Source: a bacterium | Lineage (GTDB): Bacteria > Bacillota_I > Bacilli_A > RFN20 > DUOZ01 | DNA length: 43,823 nucleotides | Assembly (NCBI GenBank): GCA_012838555.1 | Contig: DUOZ01000002.1 | Coordinates: forward strand, 1-43,823 | Direction of reading: 5' to 3' | Shown here: positions 2,652 through 24,870 of the stretch, in pieces | How the letters are laid out: every line of letters begins with the position of its first letter | How positions within the stretch are numbered: position 1 is the first letter of the stretch | Notes under the pieces: model-generated | The model's database searches: none | What the model was told of the DNA's origin: nothing | Seen by the model: the letters and a program-made list of their open reading frames with translations, nothing else | Position numbers and translations under genes: made by a program

Positions 2652-2667
2652 AGTAGCCCTCCTAATA

Positions 2668-2756
2668 TAAAAAGTACCATCGCACATAACAGAGCAAACT
2701 TAAGGCTGCTACCTCCCGGTCCTGACCTGGTTCGTCGCCTGTTATCACGATGGCAT
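2668..2756 (-). ncRNA. ffs: Small (4.5S-type) signal recognition particle RNA
   Basis: The minus strand reads GCCATCGTGATAACAGGCGACGAACCAGGTCAGGACCGGGAGGTAGCAGCCTTAAGTTTGCTCTGTTATGTGCGATGGTAC. It contains the conserved domain IV core (CCAGGTCAGG..GNRA tetraloop GGGA..AGCAGCC). The closing helix pairs CCATCG/CGATGG and ATAACAG/CTGTTAT and is followed by a T-run. Ends are approximate. Confidence 0.85.
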
Positions 2757-2761
2757 TAATT

Positions 2762-4011: not shown

Positions 4012-4050
4012 AAAATAAAAAAGTAGATGAACTTATTAAATTCAACTACT
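4012..4050 (-). terminator. Intrinsic terminator overlapping the stop of the 4046-4681 ORF
   Basis: On the minus strand, hairpin AGTAGTTGAA/TTCATCTACT (10 bp, one mismatch) is followed by TTTTTTATTTT. Confidence 0.55.
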
Positions 4051-4681
4051 CTTCACCTTTTTTTAACAAAGTGTGGTAATAATATATCGGCAGCGCGCTC
4101 CAACCATGACATAAACTTCCTGCTCCATCAAAGTCTTCTTTTCCTTTGATTGTTTCCCAAAAAGTTGTCGCTCCTTTTTCTAACATATAAGCATAAGTCC
4201 TATCAATATCTTCTAAAATATAATTTCTATAATTAATAGATAGAAGAGGTCCAATACCTTCTAAGGTGAAATATTTGAAGATTAAAGCAAAGACCATAGA
4301 TGATAAAATTGTTGGAGCCATTATTAAGAATAAAATGGTTCGATGTCCTTTAACCTTCTTAAATAACAAATAGGAAAAGAAGATATAAAGCGGCATACAA
4401 ATTAATAATGAAACAAGATAAATAATAAGTGAATTCTTAATACTAATTTGTATAATATCGCCATCACTTGTTAATCTATTAATAAATTCTTTAAAGTTAT
4501 CAAAGCCTACAAATTGCATTGTTCCATCTTGATAGTTTTTAAAGGCGTTAAGAATGGAGTTAATGTTAACACCAACATAGAAGATTAAGAACAAAAGTAA
4601 TGGATAGGCTAAGAAACTCCAAACGAAGATATTTTTAGATACATGTGCTTTTTTAAAATAATTGGGTCTATCTTTTGCCAT
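4046..4681 (-). pseudogene. Chimeric ORF: N-terminal half of an ABC sugar permease fused to the C-terminal tail of a six-hairpin glycoside hydrolase (GH78-like)
   Basis: The first ~150 aa resemble an LplB/MalF-type permease N-terminus with TM helices but lack the EAA loop. The last ~60 aa (GATTFWE...GSLCHGWSALP) resemble the C-terminus of alpha-L-rhamnosidase-type enzymes. The junction lies near 4230-4260. Confidence 0.6.
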
Positions 4682-4695
4682 AATGCAAGACCTCC

Positions 4696-5433
4696 TTAAT
4701 CATTAAGGAAGCCAGCATTTTTAGCTTGATTAATAAATTGATTCCATTGAGATTCTGAGTAAAGTTTAACTGAACCTTCCCAAATCTTATTAAATGAATA
4801 TTCTCTAAATGCATGGATGGTTCTAGTAGGAATTCCATCAATCCTTGTTTTATATTTGAAATCTGTTCCTAAGTTAGAAGCAAAGGATAATGGTGAGATT
4901 AATTCACTAACTTGTGGGCGAACAACCACAATATTTTCTGTATCATTGATTAATTCAAATGCATTTCTAGTAAATTGAGTTAATTCTGCTAGTAATTCTT
5001 CTGACATTTCATAATCATAAGCTGTAGTAGCTCCTGTTACTCTTGTGAAATGAATTAAGTTTTCATCTTTTAATAAATACTTAACAAATTCTTTACTCAT
5101 TGCTAATCTTTCTTGATCTTTATCTTGTGGGACCAAGATTGTTCCAGATTCACCTGAAGCAAAGACTGTTTTATTAGCAGCAAAAGCTTGATTTTCTAAA
5201 GCTGGAAGTAATAAATAACGGAAATCTCTTTCACCATAGTTATAGCCAGCACCTAAGTTAGGATAAATAGTTCTTGCTTCGTATTCCCACCAAATACCAT
5301 CAACAAGCATAGCTGATTGTTTTGATGTTCCTGAACCTAGTAAGTATCCTGCATTACCAAGTAAAAAAGTCTTTTGAACGTCATGGTGGTTAACAGGAGA
5401 AATTGGAGCTGACGCTTTATATAGATATTCAAA
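4696..5433 (-). pseudogene. 5'-truncated extracellular solute-binding protein of a sugar ABC transporter
   Basis: The frame stays open upstream of the ORF-track ATG as far as the stop at 5434-5436. There is no start codon, signal peptide or lipobox. The sequence is SBP-like (..GNAGYLLGSGTSKQSAMLVDGIWWEYE..). Confidence 0.65.
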
Positions 5434-5436: not shown

Positions 5437-5830
5437 TAGAGAAAATGCGTTTAATGATAAACCACGTAACTCAAGTTATTCAATAGATTTCAAATTAAAA
5501 ATTATTAAAGTAAAAGTATTAATGATTACAGTGCCGATAATTCTAGATTACTTTCTATTTTTTAAAAAATAACAATATAATCGGAATTTTCATATCCTTT
5601 TTTCTTAAAAATTTGAATGTCATATTTCTCTTTATATTTAGATAAAACTAAATCAGTATTGGGTACAATTGCTCTTGAAAAAAACAATGCAATATTGGAC
5701 TTTATTAATAAACTATCCACCGAAATTTTTAAAAGGAATGACACCAAATGAATTTAGGTACCATTCCCAATCAAATTTTAATTATTTTTAGATTAGCACT
5801 CTGTCTACTTGATAGGGATCAATTCAAAAT
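5437..5830 (+). mobile_element. Internally deleted IS3-family remnant (tentative)
   Basis: An OrfA-like fragment (PRNSSYSIDFKLKIIK) lies at about 5445-5510. An OrfB C-terminal-like fragment (KGMTPNEFRYHSQSNFNYF, stop at 5789-5791) follows, then an end-like sequence CTGTCTACTTGATAGGGATCAATTC. The frames are broken by stops. Confidence 0.35.
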
Positions 5831-5867: not shown

Positions 5868-7187
5868 TTACATTATTATTGGAGCAATCCTTCTTTTAAT
5901 TTGGTAACGATAATAGAGATTTACATATAAGTAAAATAAATATCTCATTGGAGACTTAATGAATCTTTTGTGAAAAATCGTTCTTTTTAAAATGTTTTTA
6001 ATGTTGTATATCTTATCATACATCTCCCAAAAGATTTCATTTATTTCATCTGTTGTCATATTTGGATGATTAATAACTGCTTTAGATGGACTAAAAGTAA
6101 ATATATCCTTCTCTACAATTCGATTTTCTTTCATGAATTTTTCGTAAAGGTCAGTTCCTACTATAGGAGTCATAATATAAAATTTCGGAGCAATAATCCT
6201 TGTTTTATTAATAAACTTAATAGTTTCTCTTAATGATTCTTTGGTGTCATTATCAATACCAACAATCATTTCTGAAGCAACATCAATCCCAGCATTATAA
6301 ATTTTTTCAATTAAATATTGATATTCATCTGGTTTACACCATTCTTTATTGATTGTTTTTAAACTATCCTTATTAATACTTTCTAGGCCAATACTTAAAG
6401 TAAAACAACCACTATCAGCTACTATCTTTAATAGTTCATCATCTCTTGCTATATCAATCGTACATTGGGTCATCCATTTCATATTAAGTTTTTTTATTTC
6501 TTTACAAAGTTCTTTCATATATTTTTTATCAGAAACAATATTATCATCAAGTAATAAAAATTTCTTAAACCCTAATGACTTAATATGTTTGATATCTCTT
6601 ATAACATCTTCTACATCTCTTCTTAAGTACTTATTACGGTACATACAATAAATCGTACAAAAACTACAACTATTAGGACATCCCCTACCTGCTTGAACTG
6701 GTAGGAAATCTCCTATTTTTTTATTTAAAATTAACTCAAATCGTGGTAGTGGTGTAGATAATTTCTTAATTGGTTTTTGATAGAAAGGTTTTAAATCATT
6801 ATTTTCAATATCTTTTAAAACATTATTCCATACTTCTTCACTATCACCGACTACTACAGCATCACAGAATTTTTTAGCAATTTCAGGGACTAAACTAACC
6901 ATTGGTCCACCCATAATTACAATTTTACCGCGTTTTCTAAATTCTTGAGCTATTTCACAACCCCTTTTGGCTGCATGTCCCATACCACCAATTCCAATAA
7001 CAGAAGCATCTGTATCAAATGGAATCTCTTCTATTGTTTCAATACAAATTTCAACTTCCCAATCTTTAGGTGTCATCGCCGCTAAAAGAGGATAAGCTAG
7101 TCCTACGAAATATAACCTTCCTTTTTTAACTAAATTACCAAAATCATCATAAACAGTAGGTTGAATAAAAAGTATTTTCTTTTTCAT
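5868..7187 (-). CDS. B12-binding-domain radical SAM protein (COG1032-like) with a basic/aromatic C-terminal tail
   Basis: N-terminal Rossmann-like B12-binding region (ILFIQP..VIGIGGMG..IVIMGGP). Radical SAM cluster motif CPNSCSFC. SD AGGGG precedes the ATG at 7187. Confidence 0.85.
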   Translation of the reverse strand: MKKKILFIQPTVYDDFGNLVKKGRLYFVGLAYPLLAAMTPKDWEVEICIETIEEIPFDTDASVIGIGGMGHAAKRGCEIAQEFRKRGKIVIMGGPMVSLVPEIAKKFCDAVVVGDSEEVWNNVLKDIENNDLKPFYQKPIKKLSTPLPRFELILNKKIGDFLPVQAGRGCPNSCSFCTIYCMYRNKYLRRDVEDVIRDIKHIKSLGFKKFLLLDDNIVSDKKYMKELCKEIKKLNMKWMTQCTIDIARDDELLKIVADSGCFTLSIGLESINKDSLKTINKEWCKPDEYQYLIEKIYNAGIDVASEMIVGIDNDTKESLRETIKFINKTRIIAPKFYIMTPIVGTDLYEKFMKENRIVEKDIFTFSPSKAVINHPNMTTDEINEIFWEMYDKIYNIKNILKRTIFHKRFIKSPMRYLFYLYVNLYYRYQIKRRIAPIIM

Positions 7188-7190
7188 TTA

Positions 7191-8573
7191 TTATCGCCCC
7201 TTAATTATTAACTTTAAATATTGTCTTAAAATATGCATCGCACCAAAAAAGACTCTCATATAAGTAATAAATCCATATCTTTTTATAATAAAGAAACTTG
7301 ATTTAAATGTAGCAACGGTTTTTAAATATGATCTTACAATATGATAATAGAATTTTCTAATTGATAGTTTTGATGGCTTTAGTACTAAATGAGCCATATC
7401 CCATAATTCATATTTTTCTCTTGGGATGATAAATTGATCTTGATAATAATCATAAATAATCGTTCCAGGCATTGGAGTAATTGGTTGAATATTAACCGCT
7501 GCAGGGAACTTAGACGAATTAAGATACTTAATTAAATTGTTAAAATCTTTTTTCTCCCAATCTAAACCAACAATAATACCACTATAACATTGAATTCCAT
7601 GCTTTTCTAAAATGCTTATAGCTTTAATATTCATTTCTACATTTGTCTTTTTTTGATAATTGTTTAATTCATCATCTTTAAATGATTCAATTCCAACAAA
7701 AATTGCTTGGACTCCGATTTCAGCAATTTTCTTAATAACATCATCATTATTTGCTATAAAATCAGCACGACCAAATAAAATGTAATTCTTTTTAATATTG
7801 TTCGTTTTAATTAAATCACAAAACTCTTCGACTCTATCTTTCTTTAATAAGAAATTATCATCAACTATAAAGATATTTTTTTCTTTAATATGTTTAATTT
7901 CATCGATCACATCATTTAAATCACGCTCAAAATACTTGTTTTGTGTTATTTTAGTACAAAAACAAAACTCACAATTATAAGGGCAACCAAATGAAGTTTT
8001 AATAGTCGCACATTTGGTATGATAGATATAATTATATTTCTTACGGTATTTTAATGTACTCTCTCTAGAAGGATGAGGATAATTGAAATTTGTATTAATA
8101 ACATATTCTTTAGTATTATCTTTCCAAATTCCTTTAATTAAATCTTTGTTTACTTCAACAGGGCGATTAATATTATCAAGTAGTTCTTTAAATGTATCTA
8201 AAGCATTGACTTTGATAATATAATCTATTTCTTTAACTTCAAAATCACTAGGTACTACCTCTGCATGAACCCCTCCGACTACAGTAACTATTTTAGAATT
8301 TATTTCTTTAACTTCTAAAGCATAATCTTTAACGACACCCACATGGGTAATATATGAGGTAAAACCAACGACATCTGGTTGATATTTTTTAATAAAATAT
8401 GATAATGGTTTTTTCTCTAAAATCATATCTAAAATGATAACATTGTGACCAAACTCTGTTAAATAAGAATAAAGATACTCTAATTCTAAAGGTTCACAAA
8501 TCATAAAACTTTGTAAACCAATTGAATCTTTATGTGGTTTTGGTCGTACAAGTAAAATTTTTATTTTAATCAC
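7191..8573 (-). CDS. B12-binding-domain radical SAM protein, second paralogous type
   Basis: N-terminal B12-binding-like region (KILLVRP..VVGFTS..VVGGVH). Radical SAM motif CPYNCEFC. The GTG start at 8573 directly abuts the upstream TAG at 8574-8576, so the start codon is uncertain. Confidence 0.82.
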   Translation of the reverse strand: MIKIKILLVRPKPHKDSIGLQSFMICEPLELEYLYSYLTEFGHNVIILDMILEKKPLSYFIKKYQPDVVGFTSYITHVGVVKDYALEVKEINSKIVTVVGGVHAEVVPSDFEVKEIDYIIKVNALDTFKELLDNINRPVEVNKDLIKGIWKDNTKEYVINTNFNYPHPSRESTLKYRKKYNYIYHTKCATIKTSFGCPYNCEFCFCTKITQNKYFERDLNDVIDEIKHIKEKNIFIVDDNFLLKKDRVEEFCDLIKTNNIKKNYILFGRADFIANNDDVIKKIAEIGVQAIFVGIESFKDDELNNYQKKTNVEMNIKAISILEKHGIQCYSGIIVGLDWEKKDFNNLIKYLNSSKFPAAVNIQPITPMPGTIIYDYYQDQFIIPREKYELWDMAHLVLKPSKLSIRKFYYHIVRSYLKTVATFKSSFFIIKRYGFITYMRVFFGAMHILRQYLKLIIKGR

Positions 8574-9647
8574 CTACAAATCTAATAAATAGACACAATA
8601 ATGGCGATCTTCTCTTACCGTATTAGATTTATTAAGTAAAGTTGAATCTTCATTATTATCAAAAACAAAGTTAGTAACACCACTTTCAAACTTTTTACTT
8701 GTAACCTTATAACATTCATTTAATAAACCATATGCTACTAAACTTCTTTGATAAGGTTCTAAAATACCAATAGCATTTATAATCATTTTATTAACTTTCC
8801 TACGTTTAAAGAAAAAATTAAATCCAAGTGATAACATGGTATTTTTCTTACCTCCAGGAATGATTTCGTTAAAATCAGGATGCCAGAATATAAATCCGAC
8901 TTCTTTTCCATCTTTTAAAGCAAAAATTAAGTTTTCCTTATCTAAAAACGGACCTAAATCTTTTAATAACTCATACATACATATTCCATCTCTAGGAAAA
9001 TATAGAGGTGTCTCTTTTAAAGTTTGATTACATAAGTTACCAAATAATATCATTTCATTCTTAAAATTCTTTTTGTCTAAATATCTAAATGTAAATTCTT
9101 TATTTACTTTTTCTAAAATCCGTTCATTAAATTTAATTTGATTGGTGTAATAAAAATATGTTGTTAAAGTAAGTTTTTTAAATTTATACTTATCAAAATA
9201 ATCAACATAATAAGATTTATGGTATAAACTATCGAAAGGAATTGGTTTATCAAAATTATCCATTAAGATTCCAACTCCATAACTAACATGACCATTTAAC
9301 CCTATAACAATTTTCTTTAAATCTAATTTATTAGCTTCCTTTATCGCAGTATTAATTAATGAATATACAGCTTTACTTACACCTTCTTTAGCTTCAAAGA
9401 ATCCAACTTGTAAAATTGGCAATTTATGATTATGAATTAATATACACTGGGCTAAAATCTCATTGTTTTCTTCAACATAAATAGGCTTTACATAACATTC
9501 TTTCGTAAAAGTATCTGATTGATTTAAAAATGTTTTAACAATACCTACCAAAGTGTCTTTAAAACATAAATCATTTTTATAAAGTTTATAAATAAAATCA
9601 ACATACTTTTTCTTTTGCTTAGAATCAACAACATTAACAACCTTCAT
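8574..9647 (-). CDS. Hypothetical protein, possibly a tandem GNAT-like fold
   Basis: Long ORF in the operon. The start is moved to the ATG at 9647 (MKVVNVV), which follows SD GAGGTG at 9654-9659. Its two halves have weak acyltransferase-like character and no canonical acetyl-CoA motif. The fold assignment is a guess. Confidence 0.6.
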   Translation of the reverse strand: MKVVNVVDSKQKKKYVDFIYKLYKNDLCFKDTLVGIVKTFLNQSDTFTKECYVKPIYVEENNEILAQCILIHNHKLPILQVGFFEAKEGVSKAVYSLINTAIKEANKLDLKKIVIGLNGHVSYGVGILMDNFDKPIPFDSLYHKSYYVDYFDKYKFKKLTLTTYFYYTNQIKFNERILEKVNKEFTFRYLDKKNFKNEMILFGNLCNQTLKETPLYFPRDGICMYELLKDLGPFLDKENLIFALKDGKEVGFIFWHPDFNEIIPGGKKNTMLSLGFNFFFKRRKVNKMIINAIGILEPYQRSLVAYGLLNECYKVTSKKFESGVTNFVFDNNEDSTLLNKSNTVREDRHYCVYLLDL

Positions 9648-9652
9648 ATCAA

Positions 9653-10648
9653 TCACCTCGATTTAAAAACATTAAATTTTGTTTTAATCGGTTTAAATTC
9701 AATAAAATGAGTAAAAATTCTAATTATTAAATTTAAAATAGGATTAGAGTGATGAACTAAAGCATATAAATCCACATATCTACCACCAAGTTTAAGTTTC
9801 GTATCATCTGCGGTTTGACCTAAATCCACTATCTCAAACTTATGGTCGATTGCATACTCAACCATTTTTAATAACATCGTGATATATAGGTCATATTGAG
9901 TATTATATTTATAATCAACTCCAATGAAACCAAAAACTAAAACCTTTTTATTCTCAATTAATTGAATAAAGGCAATTGGTTCACTTCCTTTATATGCAAC
10001 AATTATTTTAGCTTTGCATTTTTGGAAGAATTCTTTTGTTAATTTTTCTACTTGGAACTTAGAATTATTAAAAACATCTTCATATAACTTATATAAGCGA
10101 TCATCAAATAATTTGTTATCACTTAATATCTTAAATTCTAATTCGCTTGAAGATTTTAATGCCTTTTTATATCGATATCTGTAACTACTCCTTAAATCAC
10201 TCATATATTGTTCAAAACTATTCCATCTAATATCTAATAAGATATTTGAACACGTTAAGCCAAAAGCAAAATTCTTAAAATGAGGATTAGAATGAATATT
10301 TAAAATAAGTTTGCATCCTCTTATTTTTTTAATTGCCTTTTCTACCTGTTCTTTAGTTTTTTCTCCAATAATAATTCCTGCATTAGCAATAGATAAAGGA
10401 ACATAAATAAAGGTTGTATCGATTTTAAAATCAATTGGTGAAAACATACCAATATTATGTTTTTTCTTTTTAAAAGTCATAAAAACCGAATCAAATTTAT
10501 TTTCTTGATCTTTAAATAGATAATATTGTTGCTGACAAGGATTAACTTCTTCCATCAGTGTTAAAAATGACCTTTGCATTGCATAATTGTCTTTACAAAA
10601 TTCATCCCATTCTTCGGGTAATTCACTTGCTCTTTTATATACTTCCAT
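9653..10648 (-). CDS. FemABX/BioF2-like GNAT-family (Acetyltransf_6-like) protein
   Basis: The N-terminal LPEEWDEF...FLTL and C-terminal ..VDLGQTADDTKLKLGG pattern is typical of FemAB/CelD-like acyl- or aminoacyl-transferases. SD AAGAGGGA precedes the ATG at 10648. Confidence 0.65.
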   Translation of the reverse strand: MEVYKRASELPEEWDEFCKDNYAMQRSFLTLMEEVNPCQQQYYLFKDQENKFDSVFMTFKKKKHNIGMFSPIDFKIDTTFIYVPLSIANAGIIIGEKTKEQVEKAIKKIRGCKLILNIHSNPHFKNFAFGLTCSNILLDIRWNSFEQYMSDLRSSYRYRYKKALKSSSELEFKILSDNKLFDDRLYKLYEDVFNNSKFQVEKLTKEFFQKCKAKIIVAYKGSEPIAFIQLIENKKVLVFGFIGVDYKYNTQYDLYITMLLKMVEYAIDHKFEIVDLGQTADDTKLKLGGRYVDLYALVHHSNPILNLIIRIFTHFIEFKPIKTKFNVFKSR

Positions 10649-10778
10649 AATATCCCTCTTTAATTAATTCTAACATATTTAATAAATTATAAGTACACAA
10701 AATACATATAAATATTGAAACCAGTCTACCCATAATAAAACTTGAATAAATTATATATTATCTCTAATTTAATATAAA

Positions 10779-10811
10779 TACACATTATACACATAGTGTG
10801 TAATTTGTGTT
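10779..10811. promoter_or_regulatory. Nested dyad (candidate operator) in the divergent intergenic region
   Basis: The sequence is TACACA TTA TACACA TAG TGTGTA ATT TGTGT. The inner and outer half-sites are symmetric about the TAG at 10794-10796. Confidence 0.45.
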
Positions 10812-10825
10812 TATTCGTAATTTGG

Positions 10826-10854
10826 TTGAACTACCTTTAAAAATAAGATACAAT
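10826..10854 (+). promoter_or_regulatory. Sigma-A-type promoter of the TPR gene
   Basis: TTGAAC, a 17-nt spacer, then TACAAT, about 25 nt upstream of the ATG at 10879. Confidence 0.55.
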
Positions 10855-10878
10855 TATATCAAATATTGGAGGAATAAC

Positions 10879-12828
10879 ATGTTTGAAAAATACTTTGGTA
10901 GATATAAACAAGGACTAGAACTTTTAAGAAATGAAGAATATGAAAATGCCTATGAAGCCTTTTCTAATCTAATAAATAAAAATCCTAAAGATTATAAAGC
11001 AAGAGCTTATCGCGGTATTATTAGCGCGATCTTTTTAAACAAGAGCGATGAAGAAATATATCAAGACTTAAAACTAGGTATTAAAGCACCATATAATCTT
11101 TCATCGAGAATTTATTCATTATATTCTGATGTTTGTTTTAATGTTAAAAAATATGATGAGGCTGTAGAATATGCTCAAAAAGCAATTAATGCAGGCATTC
11201 CAAGTGATACTAATTATTTGTTATTAGCTAGATACTATATCTATGAAAAAAATGATAAAAAGTTAATAAATACAGCTTTAGAATACATTGATTATTTAAT
11301 GAATAAAATGCAAAATGATGAATTAATTATCTTAAAAGCACATGCTTATATCAAACTAGATAAATATGAGGAAGTTCAACCTCTGGTTGATAAACTTTTC
11401 TTTTCATCATCTAATGTTGATAATGCATATTTAATTCAAGCTGATGCTATTTTTTATAACCCAAATTCCTCAGATGAAGATTTAAAAAAAGCAATTAATT
11501 CATATCAAGAAGCAATAAATTTAATTAAAGATAATGAAATTAAAATTGACATCCTTTTAAAAATAAGTGAAATTCATAAACACATAGAATCATTTGAAGA
11601 TTTGATAAAGACATCAGAGTTAATATTTACTTATCAAGATAATCATCCTGTAGCTATTTTTAATAAAGCGATTGGACTAGCAGCTTTAGATCATATTGAT
11701 GATGCAATAAATCTATTAGAAGCTAACTTAGATACAACGCCACCACATCTAGAGTTATATTCTAATCGATTCTTAGCACTTTGGTATTATCAAAAAGTTA
11801 ATAGTGAAAATGATTTAAAAATGGCAGTTAAATATGCTGTTAAAGCAGCTAATCTAGAGTTAAATCACCTCAATTATGCGTTAATTATCGATTTATATGA
11901 GGCACTATATGATTTTGAAAATGTTGAAAAATACGCTGATATGTATATGAAACTTTTCTTTAAATATCCTTATGGATATTATATGAAAGGTTATAGTTTA
12001 TTCTTAAAAAGATATCCTTTTAAGAAATACATTAGATATTACAAAATGGCAGCTCAATTTGATAATACTTATCAAAAAGATTATTTATTATTGAATTATG
12101 AACGAACAAACAGAACTAAAAAAGCATTTAATAAAATAAAATCTGATTTCCATAATTTAATCATGCAAGGTTTAAAGGCTAATAAATACTGGGCTTATCG
12201 GTACGCTGCATTAGGTTATTTTTATGGTGAATATGGTTTTGATGTTAATATTGATGAAGCATATGTAGTGGTAAATCAATGTCTTGAACTTAATGATAAT
12301 TCTTGTGATTTTACATTAAAAGGAGCGATTTTATTAAAACAAAATCAACATTTTGATGAAGCTGGTAGGTTGTTTGAACATTCTCACAATGAGTTTATAA
12401 GTTATAAAACACCTTGTTCTTGTGGATCTACATTTTTAGCTAGGATGTATTTAGAAGGAATCCACTTTGATAAAGATGAACCCAAAGCTATGAAAATCAC
12501 TCTTGATTCATATAATAAAGCTAAAAAATATATGCATTCTAATTCTGCAATTTTATATGCATATTTTGCTCTTTTAAATAAAGAAAACTTTGATCTTAAT
12601 CTTGCTTTAGAAAATTTAAAAAATGTAGAAAATGAACTTTATTATAATAGTCCAGTTTTCTACATGTTAAAAGAAATTTATTTAAAATTAAACAACCATG
12701 AAAAAGCCAATTATTATTATAAAAGAATGGAAGAATCATTACTTTACGAAGGTAAGACAATAAAAGAAGAAATGCTAGAAAAGTTAAAATCAAATCATCT
12801 ATTCTTACCACCATTTAATAATTTCTAA
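10879..12828 (+). CDS. Cytoplasmic TPR/Sel1-like repeat protein
   Basis: The start is moved to the ATG at 10879 (MFEKYFGRY), which follows SD GGAGGA. Repeated TPR-like helical pairs run throughout, with a Sel1-like segment (LARMYLEGIHFDKDEPKA). There is no signal peptide. Confidence 0.8.
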   Translation: MFEKYFGRYKQGLELLRNEEYENAYEAFSNLINKNPKDYKARAYRGIISAIFLNKSDEEIYQDLKLGIKAPYNLSSRIYSLYSDVCFNVKKYDEAVEYAQKAINAGIPSDTNYLLLARYYIYEKNDKKLINTALEYIDYLMNKMQNDELIILKAHAYIKLDKYEEVQPLVDKLFFSSSNVDNAYLIQADAIFYNPNSSDEDLKKAINSYQEAINLIKDNEIKIDILLKISEIHKHIESFEDLIKTSELIFTYQDNHPVAIFNKAIGLAALDHIDDAINLLEANLDTTPPHLELYSNRFLALWYYQKVNSENDLKMAVKYAVKAANLELNHLNYALIIDLYEALYDFENVEKYADMYMKLFFKYPYGYYMKGYSLFLKRYPFKKYIRYYKMAAQFDNTYQKDYLLLNYERTNRTKKAFNKIKSDFHNLIMQGLKANKYWAYRYAALGYFYGEYGFDVNIDEAYVVVNQCLELNDNSCDFTLKGAILLKQNQHFDEAGRLFEHSHNEFISYKTPCSCGSTFLARMYLEGIHFDKDEPKAMKITLDSYNKAKKYMHSNSAILYAYFALLNKENFDLNLALENLKNVENELYYNSPVFYMLKEIYLKLNNHEKANYYYKRMEESLLYEGKTIKEEMLEKLKSNHLFLPPFNNF

Positions 12829-12874: not shown

Positions 12875-14146
12875 TTATTTAATAATATCTGTTCCCATGT
12901 ATTTAACTAATGCTTCTGGTACAGTAACGGAACCATCTTCATTTTGATAGTTTTCTAAAATAGCAGCGACAGTTCTACCAACTGCTAAGCCTGAACCATT
13001 TAATGTATGAACAAATTCTGGCTTAGCTTTAGGATCTCTTCTAAACTTAATATTAGCTCTCCTAGCTTGGAAATCTTCAAAATTACTACAAGAAGATATT
13101 TCCTTATAACTATTGTAAGATGGTAGCCAAACTTCTAAATCATAGGTCATCGCTGAACTAAAACCAACATCACCAGTTGATAGTTTCATAACCCTATAAG
13201 GTAATTTTAAGATTTTTAAAATCTCTTCAGCATCATTAGTTAATTCTTCTAAGTTTTGATAAGAATCTTCAGGACGAGTAAATCTAACTAATTCAACTTT
13301 GTTAAATTGATGTTGACGAATAATACCTCTTGTATCTCTTCCTGCCGCTCCAGCTTCAGATCTAAAACATGGAGTATATGCAACATATTTAATTGGAAGT
13401 TCATCATTACTTAATATTTCATTAGCATGCAAATTAGTAACTGGTACTTCAGCCGTAGGTGCTAAATAATAATCAAATTCTCTTAACTTAAATAAGTCTT
13501 GTTCAAATTTTGGAAGTTGTCCTGTTCCAAAAAGAGAATTAGCATTAATCATGAATGGAGGTAAGATTTCTTTACATCCATGTTTTTCAGTATGAATATC
13601 TAGCATTAAGTTAATTACAGCTCGTTCGAGTCTAGCACCTAAACCTTTATAGACAGTAAATCTAGAACCTGTTATTTTACCTGCTCGTTCAAAGTCTAAA
13701 ATATCTAAATTAGTTCCGATTTCCCAATGAGGTAATACTTCAAAGTCAAATTTTCTAACTTCTCCCCAAGTTCTAATTAATTCATTAGCATCTTCATCTT
13801 TTCCAACTGGTAAACTTTCATTAGGTATATTAGGTGTTATTGCCATTAACTCATTGATTTTTCCTTCAATTTCTCTTACCTTATCATCTAAGACTTTAAT
13901 TTTTTCTCCAATATTAGCTACTTCTTCCATTATTGGGGCTACATCTAATCCTTGACGTTTATTAATACCAATTTCTTTTGATTTTTGGTTACGAAAGTTT
14001 TTTAATTCTTCAACTTCATTTAGAACCTTTCTTCTATCTTCATCAAGTTTAACTACGTCTCTTAAATAAGAAAAATCTCCATTTCTCGTACTTAATTTTT
14101 TAATGGCCTCTTCAACATTTTCTCTAATTAATCTAATATCTAACAT
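12875..14146 (-). CDS. serS: Seryl-tRNA synthetase
   Basis: N-terminal coiled-coil ([13 protein letters not shown]) and class II core motifs. The start is moved to the ATG at 14146, which follows SD AAGGAGGA. The 24-codon extension in the ORF track runs into the T-box terminator. Confidence 0.95.
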
Positions 14147-14159
14147 ATTAATCCTCCTT

Positions 14160-14376
14160 ATAAAAAAAGGAAACAGCCCCCAAAGGGACGGTTTCCCGTG
14201 TTGCCACCCTTTTTGCATACATCTTCAATGCATGCCACTCATTACTAATAACGGTTAGTTGCCGGGAATGTTCACATTCCTCTCATAAGCGGATTCAAGA
14301 TCGTTATCAATTGGTTTCCACCATCCACCAACTCTCTAGATGACACGTATCTTTACTACTCTTAATCACCGATTTA
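14160..14376 (-). promoter_or_regulatory. T-box riboswitch leader, serine-specific
   Basis: The minus strand has the T-box sequence AAAGGGTGGCAACACGGG at about 14195-14213. The terminator is GGAAACCGTCCCTTTGGGGGCTGTTTCC plus a T-run (14162-14196). The specifier-loop context is GAA-UCC-G, with UCC (Ser) at 14291-14293. AGAGA and GA-motif elements lie in stem I. Confidence 0.85.
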
Positions 14377-14381
14377 AATTG

Positions 14382-15856: not shown

Positions 15857-18388
15857 CTATCCTTCCTTATCTATGTCTTTTTGCTCACTAGGAGTTTCTT
15901 CACTTGCTACTTCTGTTTCCTCTTCTTCGTGCTCTGCGACTTCAATAGATGCAATTTCTTGGCCATCATCAAGTCGAATCACCCTAACACCTTGAGTATT
16001 TCGACCTAAAATCGCAACTTGTGTTAATGGAATACGTAAGATAGTCCCTTTATCAGTAACAATGATTAAATCTTCATCGCCTTTAACCACTCTTAAAGCG
16101 ACTAAATCACCAACTCTTTCAGTAGCATTTAAGGTTAAGACACCTTTTCCACCACGATTAGTTAAACGGTATTCATCAATTTTAGTCATCTTACCATATC
16201 CGTTTGCACTAATAGATAAGACATAGTCACCTTCATAACTAGTCGCAGCTCCTACAACATATCCGCCTTGGACATCAATACCTCTAACACCCATAGCATT
16301 TCTCCCCATTGCTCGGACATCTTGTTCATTGAATCTAACTACTTTACCTAAACTAGATGCAATGATGATTTCATCATTTCCTCCAGTTACTTTAACGCCA
16401 AAGAGTTCATCATCTTCATTTAAAGTAATAGCAATCTTGCCATTTTGTCGAATATTTTCAAATTCCTTTGTACTTACTCTCTTAACTAAACCTTTTTTAG
16501 TTACAAATAATAAGAATAAATCATCATATTTATCTAAAGCTAACATAGCCATGACTTTTTCTTCTTTTTCAATGTTAAGTAAGTTAATTACAGGGATACC
16601 TTTATGTTGTCGACTATACTCAGGAATTTGATAGCCTCTCATTCGATAAACTTTACCAGCATTAGTAAAGAATAATATATCAATATGAGTAGTAGTAGTT
16701 AATAAATTTGATACAATATCATCTTCATGTGTAGACATCCCTCTAACACCTTTTCCACCACGGTTTTGGGTACGATAAGTGTCTAAATTAACACGTTTAA
16801 TATAACCATTCATAGTTAAAGAAATGACAATATCTTCTTTAGGAATTAAATCCTCATCTTCAATATCAAATTGCCCGATTAAGATTTCTGTTCTTCTTTC
16901 GTCACCATATCTAGCTTTAACATCTAGTAATTCTTTTTCCATGATTTCTACAACTTTTTCATGGCTTGCTAAAATTGATTCTAGCTCAGCGATTAAGGCA
17001 TCTAATTGCTTAATTTCTTCTTCAATTTTATCTCTTTCAAGACCTGTTAAGCGTTGTAATCTCATATCTAAAATCGCTTTTGCTTGTTTTTGTGATAAAT
17101 CATAGTTTTCCATTAAACGATTTGATGCTTCTTCATTATTACTACTTGTTTTAATTAATTCAATAATGTCATCAATGTTATTAATAGCAACAGATAAACC
17201 TTGTAAAATATGAATTCTATCTCTTGCTTTATCTAAATCAAATTGAGTTCTTCTTTTGATTATTTCAATTTGATGATCAACATAAAGACTAATCATTTCT
17301 TTAATTGATAAAATTTGAGGTACTCCATTATTTAAAGCAAGCATATTAATGCTAAAACGGCTTTGTAATGGAGTTAATTTATATAAATTATTTAAGATAA
17401 CTTCAGGAATAACATCTCTTTTTAATTCAATAACAACACGAATACCTTCACGATTTGATTCATCTCTAATATCGCTAATGCCTTCAATGGTCTTGTTTTT
17501 GACTAAATCGGCAATTTTTTCAACCATTGTAGCCTTATTTACTTGATAAGGAATTTCACTAACAATGATTCGATGTCTTCCATTACCCATTTCTTCAATT
17601 TCACATTTTGATCGAATAGTAACTGAACCATTACCTGTTTCATAAGCTTTTTTAATTCCTGATTTACCTAAAATTTGTGCACCTGTTGGAAAGTCAGGTC
17701 CTTGGATATAATCTGTCATTAAATCAATAATTGATAAATCTGGATCTTTTGCTAATGCTAAACAAGCATCAATTACTTCACATAAGTTATGTGGAGGTAT
17801 GTTAGTAGCCATACCTACAGCGATACCAGTAGTACCATTAACTAATAAATTAGGGAATTTAGCAGGTAATACAACCGGTTCAATTTCTTCTCCGTCATAG
17901 TTTGGCATGAAATCAACTGTATTTTTATTGATATCTTTAACCATTTCCATGGCAATTTTAGACATTCTTGCTTCAGTATAACGCATCGCAGCTGCCATAT
18001 CGCCGTCAATTGAACCAAAGTTACCATGACCATCAATTAAAGGATAACGAATATTAAAATCTTGAGCTAAACGTACCATTGCATCATAAACAGCACTATC
18101 ACCATGAGGGTGATATTTACCGATAACGTCACCAACAATACGAGCAGATTTCTTAAATGGCTTATCAGCATGCATACCTAAGTTATTCATTGCATAAATA
18201 ATACGTCTATGAACTGGTTTAAATCCGTCTCTAACATCTGGTAATGCTCTAGAGACGATAACTGACATTGAATAATCTAAAAAGGAGGTTCTAACTTCCT
18301 TAGCGATATCAATAGGAACTATACCTTTTGGAAGTTGCTCTTCTGTTTCATCTATTTCATCATATTGATTTAATTTCTCATTTTCCAT
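15857..18388 (-). CDS. gyrA: DNA gyrase subunit A
   Basis: Canonical GyrA sequence (AAAMRYTE with the active-site Tyr), beta-pinwheel C-terminal domain and acidic tail. Confidence 0.98.
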
Positions 18389-18400
18389 TTTTTAACCTCC

Positions 18401-20332
18401 TTAAATATCAAGATTCTTAACGAACTTCGCGTTCTTTAAGATAAATTCTTTTCTTGGTTCAACTTTTTCACCCATTAACATATCAAAATAAAGATCTGCT
18501 TCCATAGCATCCTCTAGCTTAACTTGAAGCATTGTTCTTCTTTCAGGGTCCATTGTTGTTTCCCATAATTGTTCAGGGTTCATTTCCCCAAGACCTTTAT
18601 ATCGTTGAATATTAGATGGTCTATCACCATATTCTTTTTTAAGCTCTTCAAGTTCTTCATCTGAATAAACATAATGAACATTACGGTTATAAGTCACCTT
18701 ATATAAAGGTGGTTGAGCAATATAAATATGACCTTGCTCGACAAGCGGACGCATATAACGATAGAAGAACGTTAATAATAGAGTTCTAATGTGGGCACCA
18801 TCAACGTCAGCGTCCGTCATGATTACGACTTTATGATATCTTAACTTAGAAATATCAAAAGTTGGACCAATTCCTGTACCTAAAGCGGTAATCATTGTTC
18901 CAATTTCTTGGTTTTCAAAAACACGTTCTGGACGAGCTTTTTCAACGTTAATGATTTTTCCTTTTAAAGGTAAAATTGCTTGGAATTCTCTATCTCTTCC
19001 CATTTTTGCTGATCCACCAGCTGATAAACCTTCCACGATGTACATTTCACAAATTGTTGCATCTTTTGAGGAACAATCAGCTAATTTACCAGGTAAAGAT
19101 GTGACTTCAAGTACACTTTTTCTTGTTAATTCCCTTGCCCTTTTAGCAGCGACACGCGCTTTTGCTGCTAGCATACATTTTTCAACGATAATCTTTCCTT
19201 GGTCAGGGTTTTCTAATAAGAAACGCTCAATTTGTTCACTTAGAATTTTATTAACAATCGGTCTAACTTCTGAGTTACCTAATTTAGTCTTTGTTTGACC
19301 TTCATATTGAGGATTAGGATGTTTTACTGAAATAATCGCAGTTAAACCTTCTCTAACATCATCACTATTTAACGCTTCATCGTTATCTTTCAAAATTTTG
19401 GCTTTACGACCATAATTGTTGATTACTTTAGTTATAGCATAACGGAATCCTTCTTCATGAGTTCCACCCTCGTGGGTGTTAATGTTATTACAGAAAGAAT
19501 AAATTCCAGGTAAATAACCATCGTTATACTGAGCGGCAAATTCAACCATAATATCATCTTGACTACCTTCAACATAAATAATTTCGTCATGAATAGGTTG
19601 TTTGTTTTGGTTAATAAAAGCAACATATTCTTTTAAACCACCATTGTAGATGAAAGTATCCTTTTGTGTTGGATTTTCTCTCTCATCAATAAGAGTTAAT
19701 CTTAACCCTTTGTTAAGGAACGCTAATTGACGAATTCGATCTCTCATAACTTCATAACTAAATGTAGTTGTTTCTTTAAAAATTGTTTCATCAGGTTTGA
19801 ATCTAACTTTAGTTCCCGTTTCACTAGGATCGATATTTCCAATTACCTTTAATGGTTGAGTAACCTTTCCACCATCTTCAAAGGCTATATAATAAACTTC
19901 TCCATCACGTCGAACCCACACTTCTAATTTTTTTGATAAAGCATTAACAACCGAGGCACCAACACCATGAAGACCACCTGAAACCTTATATCCTCCGCCT
20001 TCACCAAATTTACCACCAGCATGAAGTACAGTATAAACCGTTTCAACCGTTGATTTTCCTGTTTTTTGGTGAATACCTACTGGAATACCTCTTCCATTGT
20101 CAGATACTATAATTTCATTGTCTTTAGTGATTGTAATTTCAATGTGAGTACAAAAACCTGCTAAAGCTTCATCAATCGCGTTATCAACTATTTCCCAAAC
20201 TAATTGATGCAAGCCTCTTGATGCAGTTGTACCAATATACATACCAGGACGTTTTCTTACAGCTTCTAATCCTTCTAGAACCTGAATATTACTTTCATCA
20301 TATTTACTATTAAACTTAATGTCATCAGACAT
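18401..20332 (-). CDS. gyrB: DNA gyrase subunit B
   Basis: GHKL ATPase, Toprim (EGLSAGG, DADVDG) and the PLKGKILNVEKA-type motif. Confidence 0.98.
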
Positions 20333-20337: not shown

Positions 20338-21432
20338 CTACTTCCTTTCTATATCAACTACCGAACCTTGTTCAATTAGGTAGTAAGTCGCATCTAAGAT
20401 ATTTATAAAACCTTCAATATCAGTCACATTCGCTGTTGTAATAAATACTTGCATGTCTTGACTTAATGAAGACAAGAGTCTTTTACGTTTGTTTTCATCT
20501 AAATCAGACATCATATCATCAAAAATAATAATCGGTTTTTCTCCGCTTCTTCTTTCTACTACCTTAACTAGAGATAGTTTTAAAGCAATCGCTGCTAATC
20601 TTTGTTGGCCTTGAGATCCAAACACTTGGATATCTTCACCATTAATTTTAACTTGAACATCATCAAGATGAACGCCAATTTGAGTCACTTGTTTTAAGAT
20701 ATCTTTTTCAAAGTTTTTCTCATACTTTTCATAAATATCTTTCACTGAATTAACATTAGAAAAACTCGTTTGATAATTAACATCTAATTTAAAATTATCA
20801 TCAGATAATTGTTTAAAAGTTTTACTTAATTCTTCATTTAGTTTACTAATAAACTCTTTTCGTTTGTTAATAATTAAAAAAGATTCTTCTGCTATTGCTT
20901 TCGTTAGAACTTTTAAATAAAGTTCATCAATTTTTTTTTGTTTTAAAAATTCATTTCGTTCTTTAAGTAATTTTTGATACTTGTTTAAAGAATAACAATA
21001 ACTAGGTGAGATCTTACTTAATTCACTATCAATAAAATACCGTCTTTGTGATATATCTTTGAACATCCAAACATCATTGCTAGTAAAGCAGATGGTATTT
21101 AAGATTCCAATAAAATCACTATTGCGTTCTACCTCATTCCCGTTGATAAACTTATTCTTCTCTTTAGAGGTCAATCTACAACCTAATAAGGTTTTTCTAC
21201 CGAAAGCCTCGATATTAGCCTCTATTTCGAAAAAAAGCGCGTTCTTATTAATTAAAACGCTGTCTTTATGCATACGGAATGATTTAAGTGTGGATAAGTA
21301 AGCAATTGCTTCAACTAAATTAGTTTTACCTTGTCCATTGTTACCATAAATTACATTGATTTTTTCATTAAGGTCTAGGTCTAAATTAAGATAATTTCGA
21401 TAGTTAGTTAGTCTCAGGGAGTTGATTTTCAT
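20338..21432 (-). CDS. recF: DNA replication and repair protein RecF
   Basis: Walker [10 protein letters not shown] and signature SQGQQR. The start is moved to the ATG at 21432 ([14 protein letters not shown]). It overlaps the 3' end of yaaA. Confidence 0.93.
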
Positions 21433-21655
21433 CCACTTGCACCTCATAAACTACCTTATTAAATTCAACCTTATCACCGTGGTATAATTTTTTCCCGCGT
21501 CTAGTATCAACATCACCATTTATTAAAATTTGGTTTGACGCAAGAAAACTTTTAGCATCACTTCCTCGATCAATAATTCCTACTAATTTTAGGAATTGTC
21601 CGAGCTTAATATATGGGGGTTTGACGATAATGATTTTAGTCTCATTTTTCATCAT
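21404..21655 (-). CDS. yaaA: S4-domain RNA-binding protein YaaA
   Basis: Small S4-like protein in the conserved position between dnaN and recF. Confidence 0.85.
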   Translation of the reverse strand: MMKNETKIIIVKPPYIKLGQFLKLVGIIDRGSDAKSFLASNQILINGDVDTRRGKKLYHGDKVEFNKVVYEVQVDENQLPETN

Positions 21656-21694
21656 TTTTCTCCCCTTTCTTTTATATATATTCTTTACTATAAT

Positions 21695-21723
21695 ATTATA
21701 TCACAGAATAAGTCATATTTAAA
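21695..21723 (-). promoter_or_regulatory. Extended -10 promoter upstream of yaaA-recF-gyrBA
   Basis: The minus strand reads TTTAAA, a 17-nt spacer, then TGATATAAT. Confidence 0.5.
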
Positions 21724-21725
21724 GC

Positions 21726-21753
21726 AAATTAAAAGACCATCCGAGGATGATCT
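21726..21753 (-). terminator. Intrinsic terminator after dnaN
   Basis: On the minus strand, hairpin AGATCATCC-TC-GGATGGTCT (one G-U pair) is followed by TTTTAATTT. Confidence 0.65.
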
Positions 21754-21765
21754 TTTGCTTATTTT

Positions 21766-22893
21766 TTAGTAAGTTCTAACAGGTAATAATAGTTGAATAT
21801 TTGAATCGTCTTCATTGTTTTTAATAACAAATGGTTTCATATCTCCATTAAATAAAATGGTGACATTTTCAGTTCCGATTGCTCTTATAGCTTCAATTGC
21901 ATATTTAGCTGTGAACGAAATATCGAGCCGTGGTCCTTCGTAAGTAAAGGAATCGATTGTTTCTACTACTGAACCAATTTCTTGGCTCTTAGAAGAGATT
22001 TCAGCCCTTTCTGGAGTTAATGACAACTTAACGATATTGTTTCTATCAATTGATAGTAATGAAGCACGATCTATTGCAGAGATTAATACTCCTGCTAAAG
22101 TATCAAACTTTGATTCAAAAGTAGATGGAATTAATCTTGAAGTATCTGGATAAGGACTGTTATGAACTTTACTTGAAATAATCGTTCCATTTAAGTTAAA
22201 GATAACTTTACGATCACTAATATGAAGTTCAACCATACTTTCATTATCAATTAATCTTTCTACTTCAGTTAAATTTTTAGCAGGTATAGTAACGTTAAAT
22301 TCAACATTTTGTTGTAACTCAATTACTTTAGTAGCTAAACGATATGAGTCAGTTGATGTAAAATGTAATTTTTTATTTTCCGCTTTAATATTAACACCGG
22401 TTAAAATAGGTCTTGTTTCTTTATCACTAGCTGCAAAAGCAGTTTGAGATATCGCAGTTTTTAAATCATCTGAAGAAATTGTTAGAGTCACTCCTTCAGG
22501 ATTAAAATCAATATTTGGATAATCTTCCACTCTAAAGCCATTTAAATTGAAATTGGAGTTATTGTCAAATACCCTTATTAGGTTTGAGTCAATTAATTCA
22601 ATACCTACTCTTTCACTTTCAATTTTACGAATAATTTCGGTAATATATCTACCAGCAAGTAAGATTGAGCCTTCTTCAATTACATTAATGACATCTTCAT
22701 TGCCAATTGATTGTTTAATTGTAGTTGAGATAGTAATTTCACCATCTGAAGCTAATAAAGTTAATCCTTCCTTAGTTAAATCAAATTTGATACCTGATAA
22801 AGAAGGAAGTGGTGACTTTGGTGAAATGGCTCTTGATACGGTTGTTAAACCTTTTAGTAAATGTAAACGAGATATTCTCAAATTGAAACTCAT
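21766..22893 (-). CDS. dnaN: DNA polymerase III beta sliding clamp
   Basis: Typical length and position, with the conserved C-terminus ..QLLLPVRTY. Confidence 0.96.
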   Translation of the reverse strand: MSFNLRISRLHLLKGLTTVSRAISPKSPLPSLSGIKFDLTKEGLTLLASDGEITISTTIKQSIGNEDVINVIEEGSILLAGRYITEIIRKIESERVGIELIDSNLIRVFDNNSNFNLNGFRVEDYPNIDFNPEGVTLTISSDDLKTAISQTAFAASDKETRPILTGVNIKAENKKLHFTSTDSYRLATKVIELQQNVEFNVTIPAKNLTEVERLIDNESMVELHISDRKVIFNLNGTIISSKVHNSPYPDTSRLIPSTFESKFDTLAGVLISAIDRASLLSIDRNNIVKLSLTPERAEISSKSQEIGSVVETIDSFTYEGPRLDISFTAKYAIEAIRAIGTENVTILFNGDMKPFVIKNNEDDSNIQLLLPVRTY

Positions 22894-23047
22894 GACAATC
22901 TCTCCATTCTATTTCTTTATTTTTATTCTTTATTATTAATAATGATTATTATTAGGGGTGTGGAAATTGTGGATTAACCATAAATTTCCTACACCTAAAT
23001 TATATCATATTAGCCTTATTAAAAGTAGTATTTTTTTCATATTTTAT
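22894..23047. other. oriC part II (dnaA-dnaN intergenic): AT-rich unwinding region plus tandem DnaA boxes
   Basis: An AT-only stretch spans 22905-22954. It is followed by GGGG (22955-22958) and head-to-tail boxes TGTGGAAAT (22959-22967) and TGTGGATTA (22968-22976). Confidence 0.75.
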
Positions 23048-24868: not shown

Positions 24869-24870
24869 TT

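Follow-up and report, generated by a model that had tools for sequence, protein, structure and literature searches.

A conserved gene cassette pairing two GNAT-fold transferases with radical SAM enzymes in mostly anaerobic bacteria

Introduction

What does a bacterium make with two acyl- or aminoacyltransferase-like proteins and two radical S-adenosylmethionine (SAM) enzymes that are encoded in one tightly packed operon? The question was raised by a locus at positions 5868-10648, minus strand, of contig DUOZ01000002.1 (GenBank assembly GCA_012838555.1; GTDB lineage Bacillota_I, Bacilli_A, RFN20, DUOZ01), of which we analyzed a stretch of 43,823 nucleotides (nt), hereafter the window. We call the four genes A, B, C, and D in the order in which they are read. 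A first-pass annotation, made from the letters of the window and its translated open reading frames (ORFs), had proposed that an acyl- or aminoacyl-transfer step is combined here with two cobalamin-dependent radical steps, and it could match the combination to no characterized pathway. We found that the four genes travel together as a block through distantly related bacteria, and that A and B form an invariant core around which the radical SAM genes vary.

Distribution and co-inheritance of the cassette

Relatives of gene B were present in 377 of 185,579 GTDB species genomes (about 0.2% of species), the closest of them at 44% identity. A word-indexed search gave few relatives of B (51 clusters), and the family had 349 representatives at E ≤ 1e-30 among 1.84 billion. 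Among the carriers are many gut and rumen Clostridia, Actinomycetota, Fibrobacterota, Gemmatimonadota, Geothrix, Spirochaetales, Desulfopila, Ca. Electrothrix, Calditrichales, and Kiritimatiellia.

Wherever a context was examined, B had A, a C-type enzyme, and usually D as neighbors, and the genes flanking them were unrelated. Of 83 non-redundant loci, 76 have gene A adjoining B and 71 contain radical SAM genes. Where at least 7.9 kb downstream of B was available, all four orthologs were found in 46 of the 56 loci. Two lookups seeded with fresh D orthologs also landed in a B-A-C-D arrangement, which is the common gene order; the order A-B-C-D occurs in the window and in its closest relative (L005). 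The identity of A and B orthologs ranged from 27 to 71%. The four genes are thus inherited together, as one block, in at least eight phyla, mostly in anaerobic bacteria, and the co-occurrence that the first-pass annotation had proposed looking for in other genomes does exist. The cassette probably moves horizontally between phyla. A search of PLSDB gave one match only, a 2.63-Mb record of Acetoanaerobium noterae that is labeled a plasmid and looks like a chromosome.

Operon layout

In the window the four genes form one translationally coupled operon on the minus strand. The stop codon of gene A (9653-10648, 331 amino acids) lies at 9653-9655, 5 nt ahead of the ATG of gene B (8574-9656). The stop codon of gene B (8574-8576) abuts the GTG at 8573 that opens gene C (7191-8573, 460 amino acids), and the ATG of gene D at 7187 (5868-7187, 439 amino acids) comes 3 nt after the stop codon of gene C (7191-7193). 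All junctions are therefore abutting or 3-5 nt apart, and the same-strand, coupled stop/start geometry read earlier from the ORFs held at every coordinate. The longest ORF of gene B starts with a GTG at 9656 and would give 360 amino acids. The ATG at 9647 (357 amino acids) is more likely to be the start, since the alignment of homologs begins there and a 99%-identical protein (P0001) has 357 amino acids; this start had also been chosen in the first-pass annotation.

The intergenic region upstream of gene A (10649..10813, minus strand), which is shared with a divergent tetratricopeptide repeat (TPR) gene, holds hexamers that are promoter candidates, and it also contains the ribosome-binding site for A. 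A Shine-Dalgarno sequence, AAAGAGGG, is at about 10661-10654, ahead of the ATG at 10648. Sigma-70-like matches were seen at 10813-10784 and 10778-10750, at a frequency no higher than in shuffled sequence. Rfam gave no riboswitch or other regulatory RNA in the 160-bp gap upstream of gene A. Within the cassette of the window there was no precursor peptide, transporter, or regulator, in agreement with the earlier reading.

Gene A resembles FemX- and MprF-type transferases in fold

The first-pass annotation had taken the two upstream ORFs for a FemAB/CelD-type and a tandem-GNAT-type transferase, and structure prediction followed by fold searching found acyl/aminoacyltransferase folds in both. Gene A matched PF13480 (Acetyltransf_6) with 35.9 bits against a cut-off of 22, and had no match to the FemAB family PF02388 in Pfam or to any NCBIfam model; a few of its distant relatives carry PF04339 (FemAB_like). 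A family profile of A found nothing among PDB sequences, and only the fold search worked. The AlphaFold2 model (predicted local distance difference test score, pLDDT, 95.1) has a two-GNAT-domain architecture, and its top eleven Foldseek matches were chains of FemX, Sbb17/Sba18, L-PGS, and FemA (E 4e-12 to 5e-10, template modeling (TM) score about 0.6). The synthase domains of A-PGS and MprF were also among its structural neighbors. The FemX structures that were matched are bound to peptidyl-RNA conjugates.

Two conserved motifs of A are located in the second GNAT domain. LRSxYRYRYKK (residues 152-162) stands at the start of this domain, where a conserved basic helix (154-166) is formed, and R153 and R157 are invariant. 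GQTAxDxKLKLG is near the end of the domain, with K284 and G288 invariant. According to a 2026 review of aminoacyl-tRNA-dependent enzymes, the features of the FemX type include a basic helix of the second GNAT domain that binds tRNA, and a lysine near the end of that domain which is conserved (K305 of FemX, K329 of DhpH). We infer that the basic helix and K284 of A are equivalent to them, and A is probably an aminoacyl-tRNA-dependent aminoacyltransferase.

Thus, A shares its double-GNAT architecture and its best structural matches with the FemABX-type transferases (Weissella FemX, FemA, VlmA, DhpH/DhpK, PacB, and Orf11/Sba18/Sbb17) and with the synthase domain of MprF, but sequence identity to them is only 9-14%, and its family matches are to PF13480 and not to a FemAB Pfam or NCBIfam family. 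Unlike MprF, A has no membrane or flippase domain. Moreover, none of the known FemABX-type members is encoded together with radical SAM enzymes in the same review, whereas A is.

Gene B is a tandem GNAT protein

Gene B matched no family in Pfam or NCBIfam, and its family profile found nothing useful among PDB sequences. Its AlphaFold2 model (pLDDT 95.9) is a tandem GNAT, with glucosamine N-acetyltransferase, a clavulanate tandem GNAT, MAB_4324, MshD, VipF, and Eis at the top of the Foldseek matches (including 5kgh, 2wpw, 7q3a, 1ozp, and 6rft; E 1e-13 to 1e-8, TM score 0.55-0.63). Gene B is therefore probably an N-acyl- or N-acetyltransferase.

The acyl-CoA-dependent tandem-GNAT N-acyltransferases MshD, Clostridium acetobutylicum glucosamine N-acetyltransferase, clavulanate tandem GNAT, and Eis share the two-GNAT fold of B at TM scores of about 0.55-0.63, but at identities of 7-12%, and the conserved motifs of B, GLNGHxSYGVG and FWHPDFN, differ from those of the known enzymes. 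In parts of the B family the coenzyme A (CoA) loop has degenerated or is deleted. At the position of the pyrophosphate loop (Q/R-x-x-G-x-G/A), many members have YQxxGxA, the sequence in the protein of the window is YQRSLVA, and four residues are deleted in one subclade.

Two natural fusions include B. A metagenomic protein of 718 amino acids (P0350) joins B (residues 1-358) to A (392-715), and in another protein (P0405) a 2x[4Fe-4S] ferredoxin domain precedes a B-type domain in one chain. The fusions, of which there is one example each and which could be artifacts of gene calling, suggest that A and B act jointly with the radical SAM enzymes.

Genes C and D encode radical SAM enzymes

An N-terminal B12-binding region and a CxxxCxxC cluster had been assigned to both downstream proteins. 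The cluster is present in both (CPYNCEFC in C, CPNSCSFC in D), while the B12-binding domain is clear in C and marginal in D. Gene C matched PF02310 (B12-binding) with 64.5 bits against a cut-off of 32.1 and PF04055 (Radical_SAM) with 67.9 bits, and its family profile aligned with OxsB over the B12 domain and the core and with CysS and TokK over their N-terminal B12-domain regions. From these matches C is a clear class-B radical SAM enzyme of the HpnR/BchE-like kind, and probably a C-methyltransferase. Its best curated model was HpnR with 196.7 bits, which does not reach the equivalog cut-off of 650. The identity of C orthologs across phyla was 41-68%. In two loci (L036 and L063) the ortholog of C is split in pieces, by a frameshift or an assembly error.

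Like the hopanoid C-methylases HpnR and HpnP and like BchE, BchQ, and BchR, gene C and every extra paralog found in other cassettes have a B12-binding domain and a radical SAM core, and they scored best against HpnR/BchE models. However, their scores against HpnR were 113-197 bits, far from the cut-off. In none of the loci did the cassette have genes for hopanoids or chlorophyll nearby, and to our knowledge the taxa that carry it are not expected to make hopanoids or chlorophyll.

Gene D matched PF04055 with 74.8 bits and PF13282 with 23.1 bits, but its score for PF02310 (20.9 bits) was below the cut-off; a PF02310 match was precomputed for many of its orthologs. The best NCBIfam models were PhpK (110.3 bits, cut-off 600) and HpnJ (107.7, cut-off 577.6), AprD4 scored 63.7 (cut-off 500), and none reached its cut-off. 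Against PDB sequences the D profile found the core of AprD4 (8e-16), then QCMT/MgmA (9CCB) and MiaB; the matches to AprD4 and QCMT cover the radical SAM core only and that to MiaB the N-terminal domain. Gene D thus encodes a radical SAM enzyme whose N-terminal domain is Rossmann-like and whose C-terminus resembles DUF4070; its core is closest to the cobalamin-free radical SAM diol dehydratase AprD4. The N-terminal domain of D, of which the use of cobalamin is uncertain, is Rossmann-like as in AprD4, and a 2026 review of B12-dependent radical SAM enzymes states that AprD4 has such a domain yet binds no cobalamin. Since the nearest solved relative of D binds none, the two cobalamin-dependent steps of the first-pass annotation are unproven. 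A B12-binding enzyme is secure for C only, and this part of the proposal is not supported in the form given, while its transferase folds stand.

Despite its likeness to AprD4, QCMT, and HpnJ, D scored far below the cut-offs of the curated models and forms a separate, tightly conserved ortholog group, which was inside the cassette in both D-seeded lookups. It is the most conserved gene of the cassette (52-81% identity across phyla, mean column identity 69%). The basic, aromatic C-terminal tails of C and D, which had been taken as a sign of a membrane substrate, are indeed present. They are strongly conserved motifs in the orthologs, and the tail of D overlaps its weak DUF4070 match. Since they are conserved as family motifs, the tails look like parts of the enzyme folds rather than generic membrane anchors, and they say little about membrane binding.

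Invariant core and variable modules

The number of radical SAM genes per locus ranges from one to five. About half of the loci have the minimal four genes, and the rest have an extended arrangement, B-A-rSAM'-MT-C-(rSAM'')-D-rSAM''', with three to five radical SAM genes, in which the extra ones are all HpnR/BchE-like. MT is a class-I SAM methyltransferase and was found in 29 loci. The loci from cable bacteria (L065 and L080, Ca. Electrothrix) retain only B-A-rSAM'-MT. Gene D is absent from three Clostridia loci (L056, L059, and L086), and in two of them (L056 and L086) a CobW-type GTPase and an ATP-binding cassette (ABC) ATPase are downstream instead. A and B therefore make up the invariant core, with the radical SAM and methyltransferase genes as variable tailoring modules, a division that the first-pass annotation had missed. 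The complete extended cassette can be seen in A. noterae (L090; NZ_CP154629.1, 788000-808000), as an EamA transporter followed by B-A-rSAM'-MT-C-D-rSAM''', in a record that is almost without annotation.

The thienamycin (ThnK/L/P), bottromycin, polytheonamide, and pactamycin clusters contain multiple class-B radical SAM enzymes, and the extended cassettes likewise have three to five paralogous B12-type genes and a class-I methyltransferase. By this analogy, the extended cassettes suggest multiple or iterative C-methylation. Unlike those clusters, the cassette has no nonribosomal peptide synthetase, polyketide synthase, precursor peptide, or sugar genes, and its constant partners are the two GNAT-fold transferases only.

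A Pfam census of 218 flanking proteins found only an AMP-binding ligase (10 loci) and assorted ABC components to be recurrent. The ligase is fatty-acyl-CoA-ligase-like and occurs in 10 Lachnospiraceae-type loci, most of which also have a carrier protein of 72-87 amino acids directly upstream of B. Exporters of differing families adjoin the cassette in some lineages: EamA, which is 12 nt upstream of B in A. noterae, ABC-2, MATE/MurJ, MMPL, and ABC. Among ORFs of 18-110 amino acids in about 85 loci, no conserved precursor peptide was found. The acyl-carrier-like protein (about 10 Lachnospiraceae-type loci) was the only small-ORF family present in more than a few loci; the others were overlapping or antisense frames within single lineages, and none was in the window. 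A riboswitch or T-box, which might have pointed to the amino acid or cofactor, was absent beside the cassette in eight loci whose upstream gaps are long. Scanning all loci with crude motifs was uninformative and too insensitive, since even the T-box of the window itself was missed.

Some neighbors are confined to a few loci. In Desulfopila sp. IMCC35008 (L033, 7589-7981) and one Electrothrix metagenome-assembled genome (MAG; L050, 41-433), a 130-residue AdoMet_dc-type (pyruvoyl) decarboxylase is directly upstream of B, overlapping it or at 12 nt. This hints at a decarboxylated amine or decarboxylated SAM that would feed the pathway in the Desulfopila/Electrothrix lineage. In four rumen Lachnospiraceae loci (L067, L070, L071, and L076), three tandem paralogs of 600-730 amino acids are upstream of the block that ligase, carrier, and cassette form; judged by eye, their N-terminus is a zinc ribbon, a TIR-like segment is present, and transmembrane helices are at the C-terminus.

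A proposed pathway and its alternatives

On the operon structure, the co-inheritance, the folds, and the domain content described above, we base a proposed order of steps with proposed donors, acceptor, and product. The operon would be a self-contained, horizontally mobile biosynthetic cassette that acts on a pre-existing cell metabolite and yields a C-methylated acyl/aminoacyl conjugate; we give this proposal an even chance of being right. Conversion of a common metabolite into a specialized product is suggested since the cassette is self-contained, has neither scaffold genes nor a precursor peptide, moves between phyla, and has exporters nearby in some lineages.

In the proposed pathway, A would take an amino acid from aminoacyl-tRNA and attach it to the acceptor at an amine or a hydroxyl. 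B would then N-acylate or N-acetylate the amine, from acyl-CoA or, where the ligase and the carrier are present, from the acyl-carrier protein. The order, in which an amino acid is added and then capped, would follow the logic of MshC and MshD, amino acid addition followed by N-acetylation. C, as a cobalamin-dependent HpnR-like enzyme, would methylate an unactivated carbon, and its paralogs may add further methyl groups. D would carry out a second radical transformation, which could be a methylation or a rearrangement or dehydration like those of AprD4 and HpnJ. The product may be a lipoamino-acid-like lipid or a small molecule, exported in some lineages by the adjoining exporter. A lipid or acylated product is plausible, since the ligase and the carrier are upstream of B in Lachnospiraceae-type loci, exporters are present in some lineages, and C and its paralogs resemble HpnR.

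Several points weigh against the proposed pathway. The four-gene set is not obligatory, since D is missing from some extended cassettes and the loci of cable bacteria are reduced, and the exporters and the ligase/carrier pair occur in a minority of loci and are restricted to certain lineages. D may not use cobalamin, given its sub-threshold B12-domain score and its cobalamin-free nearest solved relative. A matches PF13480, a CelD/BioF2-like family, and not the FemAB Pfam, and its use of tRNA is a prediction. The degenerate CoA-loop motif in the protein of the window (QRSLVA) and the deletion in one subclade leave the acyl donor of B uncertain. More generally, every chemical step is proposed from folds at 7-14% sequence identity and TM scores of about 0.6. 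Finally, we found no characterized pathway with this gene combination, but the literature coverage was limited and a recent characterization could be missed.

One alternative, toward which the first-pass annotation had leaned, is remodeling of a membrane lipid that stays in the membrane, which we consider doubtful. In such a pathway, A would aminoacylate a head group as the MprF synthase domain does, B would cap the amine, and the HpnR-like enzymes would methylate the lipid. It would agree with the L-PGS, A-PGS, and MprF synthase domains among the structural neighbors of A, and with HpnR as the closest relative of C and all of its paralogs. D also weakly matches HpnJ and has a DUF4070-like C-terminus, and a search for DUF4070 gave mainly papers on hopanoid biosynthesis. 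Among the neighboring genes, a START lipid-binding protein in Geothrix, an MMPL protein in a Fibrobacterota MAG, and the fatty-acyl ligase and carrier in Lachnospiraceae would suit a lipid, but each of them is restricted to one lineage, and the EamA, MATE, and ABC exporters suit a soluble product at least equally. Furthermore, transmembrane segments and flippase domains are absent from all four proteins, the scores for the HpnR, HpnJ, and ladderane models fall far short of the cut-offs, and the conserved tails are family motifs and not demonstrated membrane anchors.

A modification of an envelope-polymer precursor, such as a peptidoglycan stem peptide, teichoic acid, or amino sugar, is improbable. 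Here A would act like FemX on a nucleotide- or lipid-linked precursor, B like a glucosamine N-acetyltransferase, and D like AprD4 or HpnJ. The best structural matches of A (FemX with peptidyl-RNA conjugates, and FemA) and of B (glucosamine N-acetyltransferase) would fit these roles, but the likenesses are at the level of folds only. AprD4, the best solved relative of D, acts on an aminoglycoside, and HpnJ, which D matches weakly, acts on a glucosaminyl hopanoid. The host makes peptidoglycan, since GlmU and a D-Ala-D-Ala carboxypeptidase are encoded in the window, and MurJ/MatE and VanW/peptidoglycan-binding neighbors were seen at single loci each. However, the cassette is unchanged across Gram-positive and Gram-negative phyla whose envelopes differ, and the flank census gave no glycosyltransferase and no recurrent cell-wall neighbor. 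Its rarity (about 0.2% of species) also argues that it is not core envelope biosynthesis.

We regard it as quite improbable that the cassette modifies a protein or ribosomal peptide encoded elsewhere, by addition of an amino acid from aminoacyl-tRNA (as by leucyl/phenylalanyl (L/F)-transferase or PEARL-type enzymes), N-acetylation, and C-methylation as in the maturation of polytheonamide or methyl-coenzyme M reductase (MCR). QCMT/MgmA, the second-best solved match of D, methylates a glutamine of MCR, and the conservation of D (52-81% across phyla) is as expected for recognition of a conserved macromolecule. C and D also match the models of ApyD and TIGR03975, which are C-methyltransferases of peptides that are made by the ribosome and modified after translation (RiPPs), but these matches are weak and far below the cut-offs. 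No conserved small ORF was in or beside the cassette in the roughly 85 loci, no recurrent neighbor in the flank census suited the role of a target, and the cassette has no leader-binding (RiPP recognition element) or protease component. As the principal reading, a RiPP cluster was rejected; the small-ORF search had given only the carrier protein, in one lineage.

Resistance to or detoxification of an external compound, by aminoglycoside-type GNAT acetylation and radical SAM modification, is very improbable: B resembles Eis-type and amino-sugar acetyltransferases, D resembles AprD4, the distribution is patchy as after horizontal gene transfer, and efflux pumps adjoin the cassette in some lineages, but four to eight dedicated enzymes with several methylases go far beyond what known determinants need, PADLOC gave nothing meaningful, and the cassette was not seen on true plasmids, the sole PLSDB match being the chromosome-like record. 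An anti-phage defense system was also rejected; PADLOC gave only generic radical SAM matches (34-43 bits, candidate model PDC-M51A) and none for A and B.

Relation to known systems and significance

The four-gene set gets no function from a curated NCBIfam equivalog, a Pfam family (in the case of B), a solved structure, or a PADLOC model. GNATs or acetyltransferases are not mentioned in the 2026 review of B12-dependent radical SAM enzymes, and no radical SAM partner is mentioned in the 2026 review that treats aminoacyl-tRNA-dependent enzymes of natural-product biosynthesis. The enzymes come from known superfamilies, and the combination is uncharacterized with a conserved core; the failure of the first-pass annotation to match it to a characterized pathway was borne out among curated families, solved structures, and reviewed pathways. 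An uncharacterized cassette of this kind is no surprise in principle, since radical SAM clusters are commonly orphans and none of the four enzymes is from outside the known superfamilies.

If the proposed pathway is right, a portable unit of four to eight genes makes a new methylated acyl/aminoacyl compound in gut Clostridia (Flavonifractor, Christensenellaceae, Lachnospiraceae, and Butyrivibrio), cable bacteria, Acidobacteriota, Fibrobacterota, and other bacteria. More tentatively, this compound may represent an undescribed class of metabolites of anaerobes, a C-methylated N-acyl-aminoacyl conjugate, lipoamino acid, or aminoacylated lipid. The pathway would be of a new type both for the use of aminoacyl-tRNA outside translation and for cobalamin-dependent radical SAM chemistry, and the first in which class-B radical SAM chemistry is directly coupled with tRNA-dependent aminoacylation. 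A would then be a new clade of soluble aminoacyl-tRNA-dependent transferases, B a tandem GNAT that receives its acyl group from a carrier protein, and D a new ultra-conserved radical SAM enzyme, possibly cobalamin-free, with a reaction new to the superfamily. It would also give a function to an unannotated protein family whose members number from several hundred to a few thousand. The cassette is thus relevant to enzymology and to metabolite discovery in microbiomes and sediments. The conservation of D makes it an attractive target for enzymology, and cultured carriers include A. noterae, A. pronyense, Flavonifractor sp. An100, Lachnospiraceae bacterium G41, Anaerovirgula multivorans, and Desulfopila sp. 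IMCC35008.

Genomic setting in the window

Downstream of gene D are psuG, two gene fragments, and an IS3-like remnant, and on the other side of the cassette are the divergent TPR gene and then serS with a T-box. The flanks described earlier, with psuG, serS, pseudogenes, and an insertion sequence remnant, were therefore found as expected. The fragments and the remnant are at 4046-5310 (minus strand) and 5617-5791 (plus strand). In one fragment-like ORF a permease-like N-terminus is followed by the final 50 residues of a rhamnosidase domain, and the other is solute-binding-like and has no Pfam match. Beside both fragments, a short stretch in two frames resembles the C-terminus of an IS3-type transposase (...LKGMTPNEFRYHSQ). 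The DNA just downstream of gene D is decayed.

The GC content of the cassette is 26.2%, compared with 29.2% for the window, which places it in the lowest tenth of windows of the same size. The AT-richness that had been noticed is thus real but mild, and the deviation is compatible with acquired DNA and no proof of it. With a slightly low GC content and with unrelated flanks in every lineage, the cassette does look accessory, as the proposal of an accessory island had implied.

The TPR gene (10807-12828, plus strand) encodes a TPR-repeat protein of 673 amino acids and has an equally low GC content (25.5%). It was conserved beside the cassette neither in the closest relative (L005) nor in any other locus examined. 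The serS gene is at 12875-14218, with its T-box leader upstream at 14181-14378 on the minus strand (Rfam RF00230, 125 bits). As the T-box of a housekeeping serS two genes away, it was judged unrelated to the cassette, and the proximity of serS was treated as coincidence, since aminoacyl-tRNA synthetase and serine-biosynthesis neighbors were only isolated cases among the loci.

Elsewhere in the window, a small bacterial signal recognition particle RNA (2664-2761, minus strand; RF00169, 63.6 bits) adjoins a tadA-like deaminase gene. The replication origin is also inside the window, in the region 21000-27000: the cumulative GC skew has its minimum at about 25-26 kb, the genes diverge from there, and dnaA (23048-24424) and gyrB/gyrA (15857-20332) are both on the minus strand.

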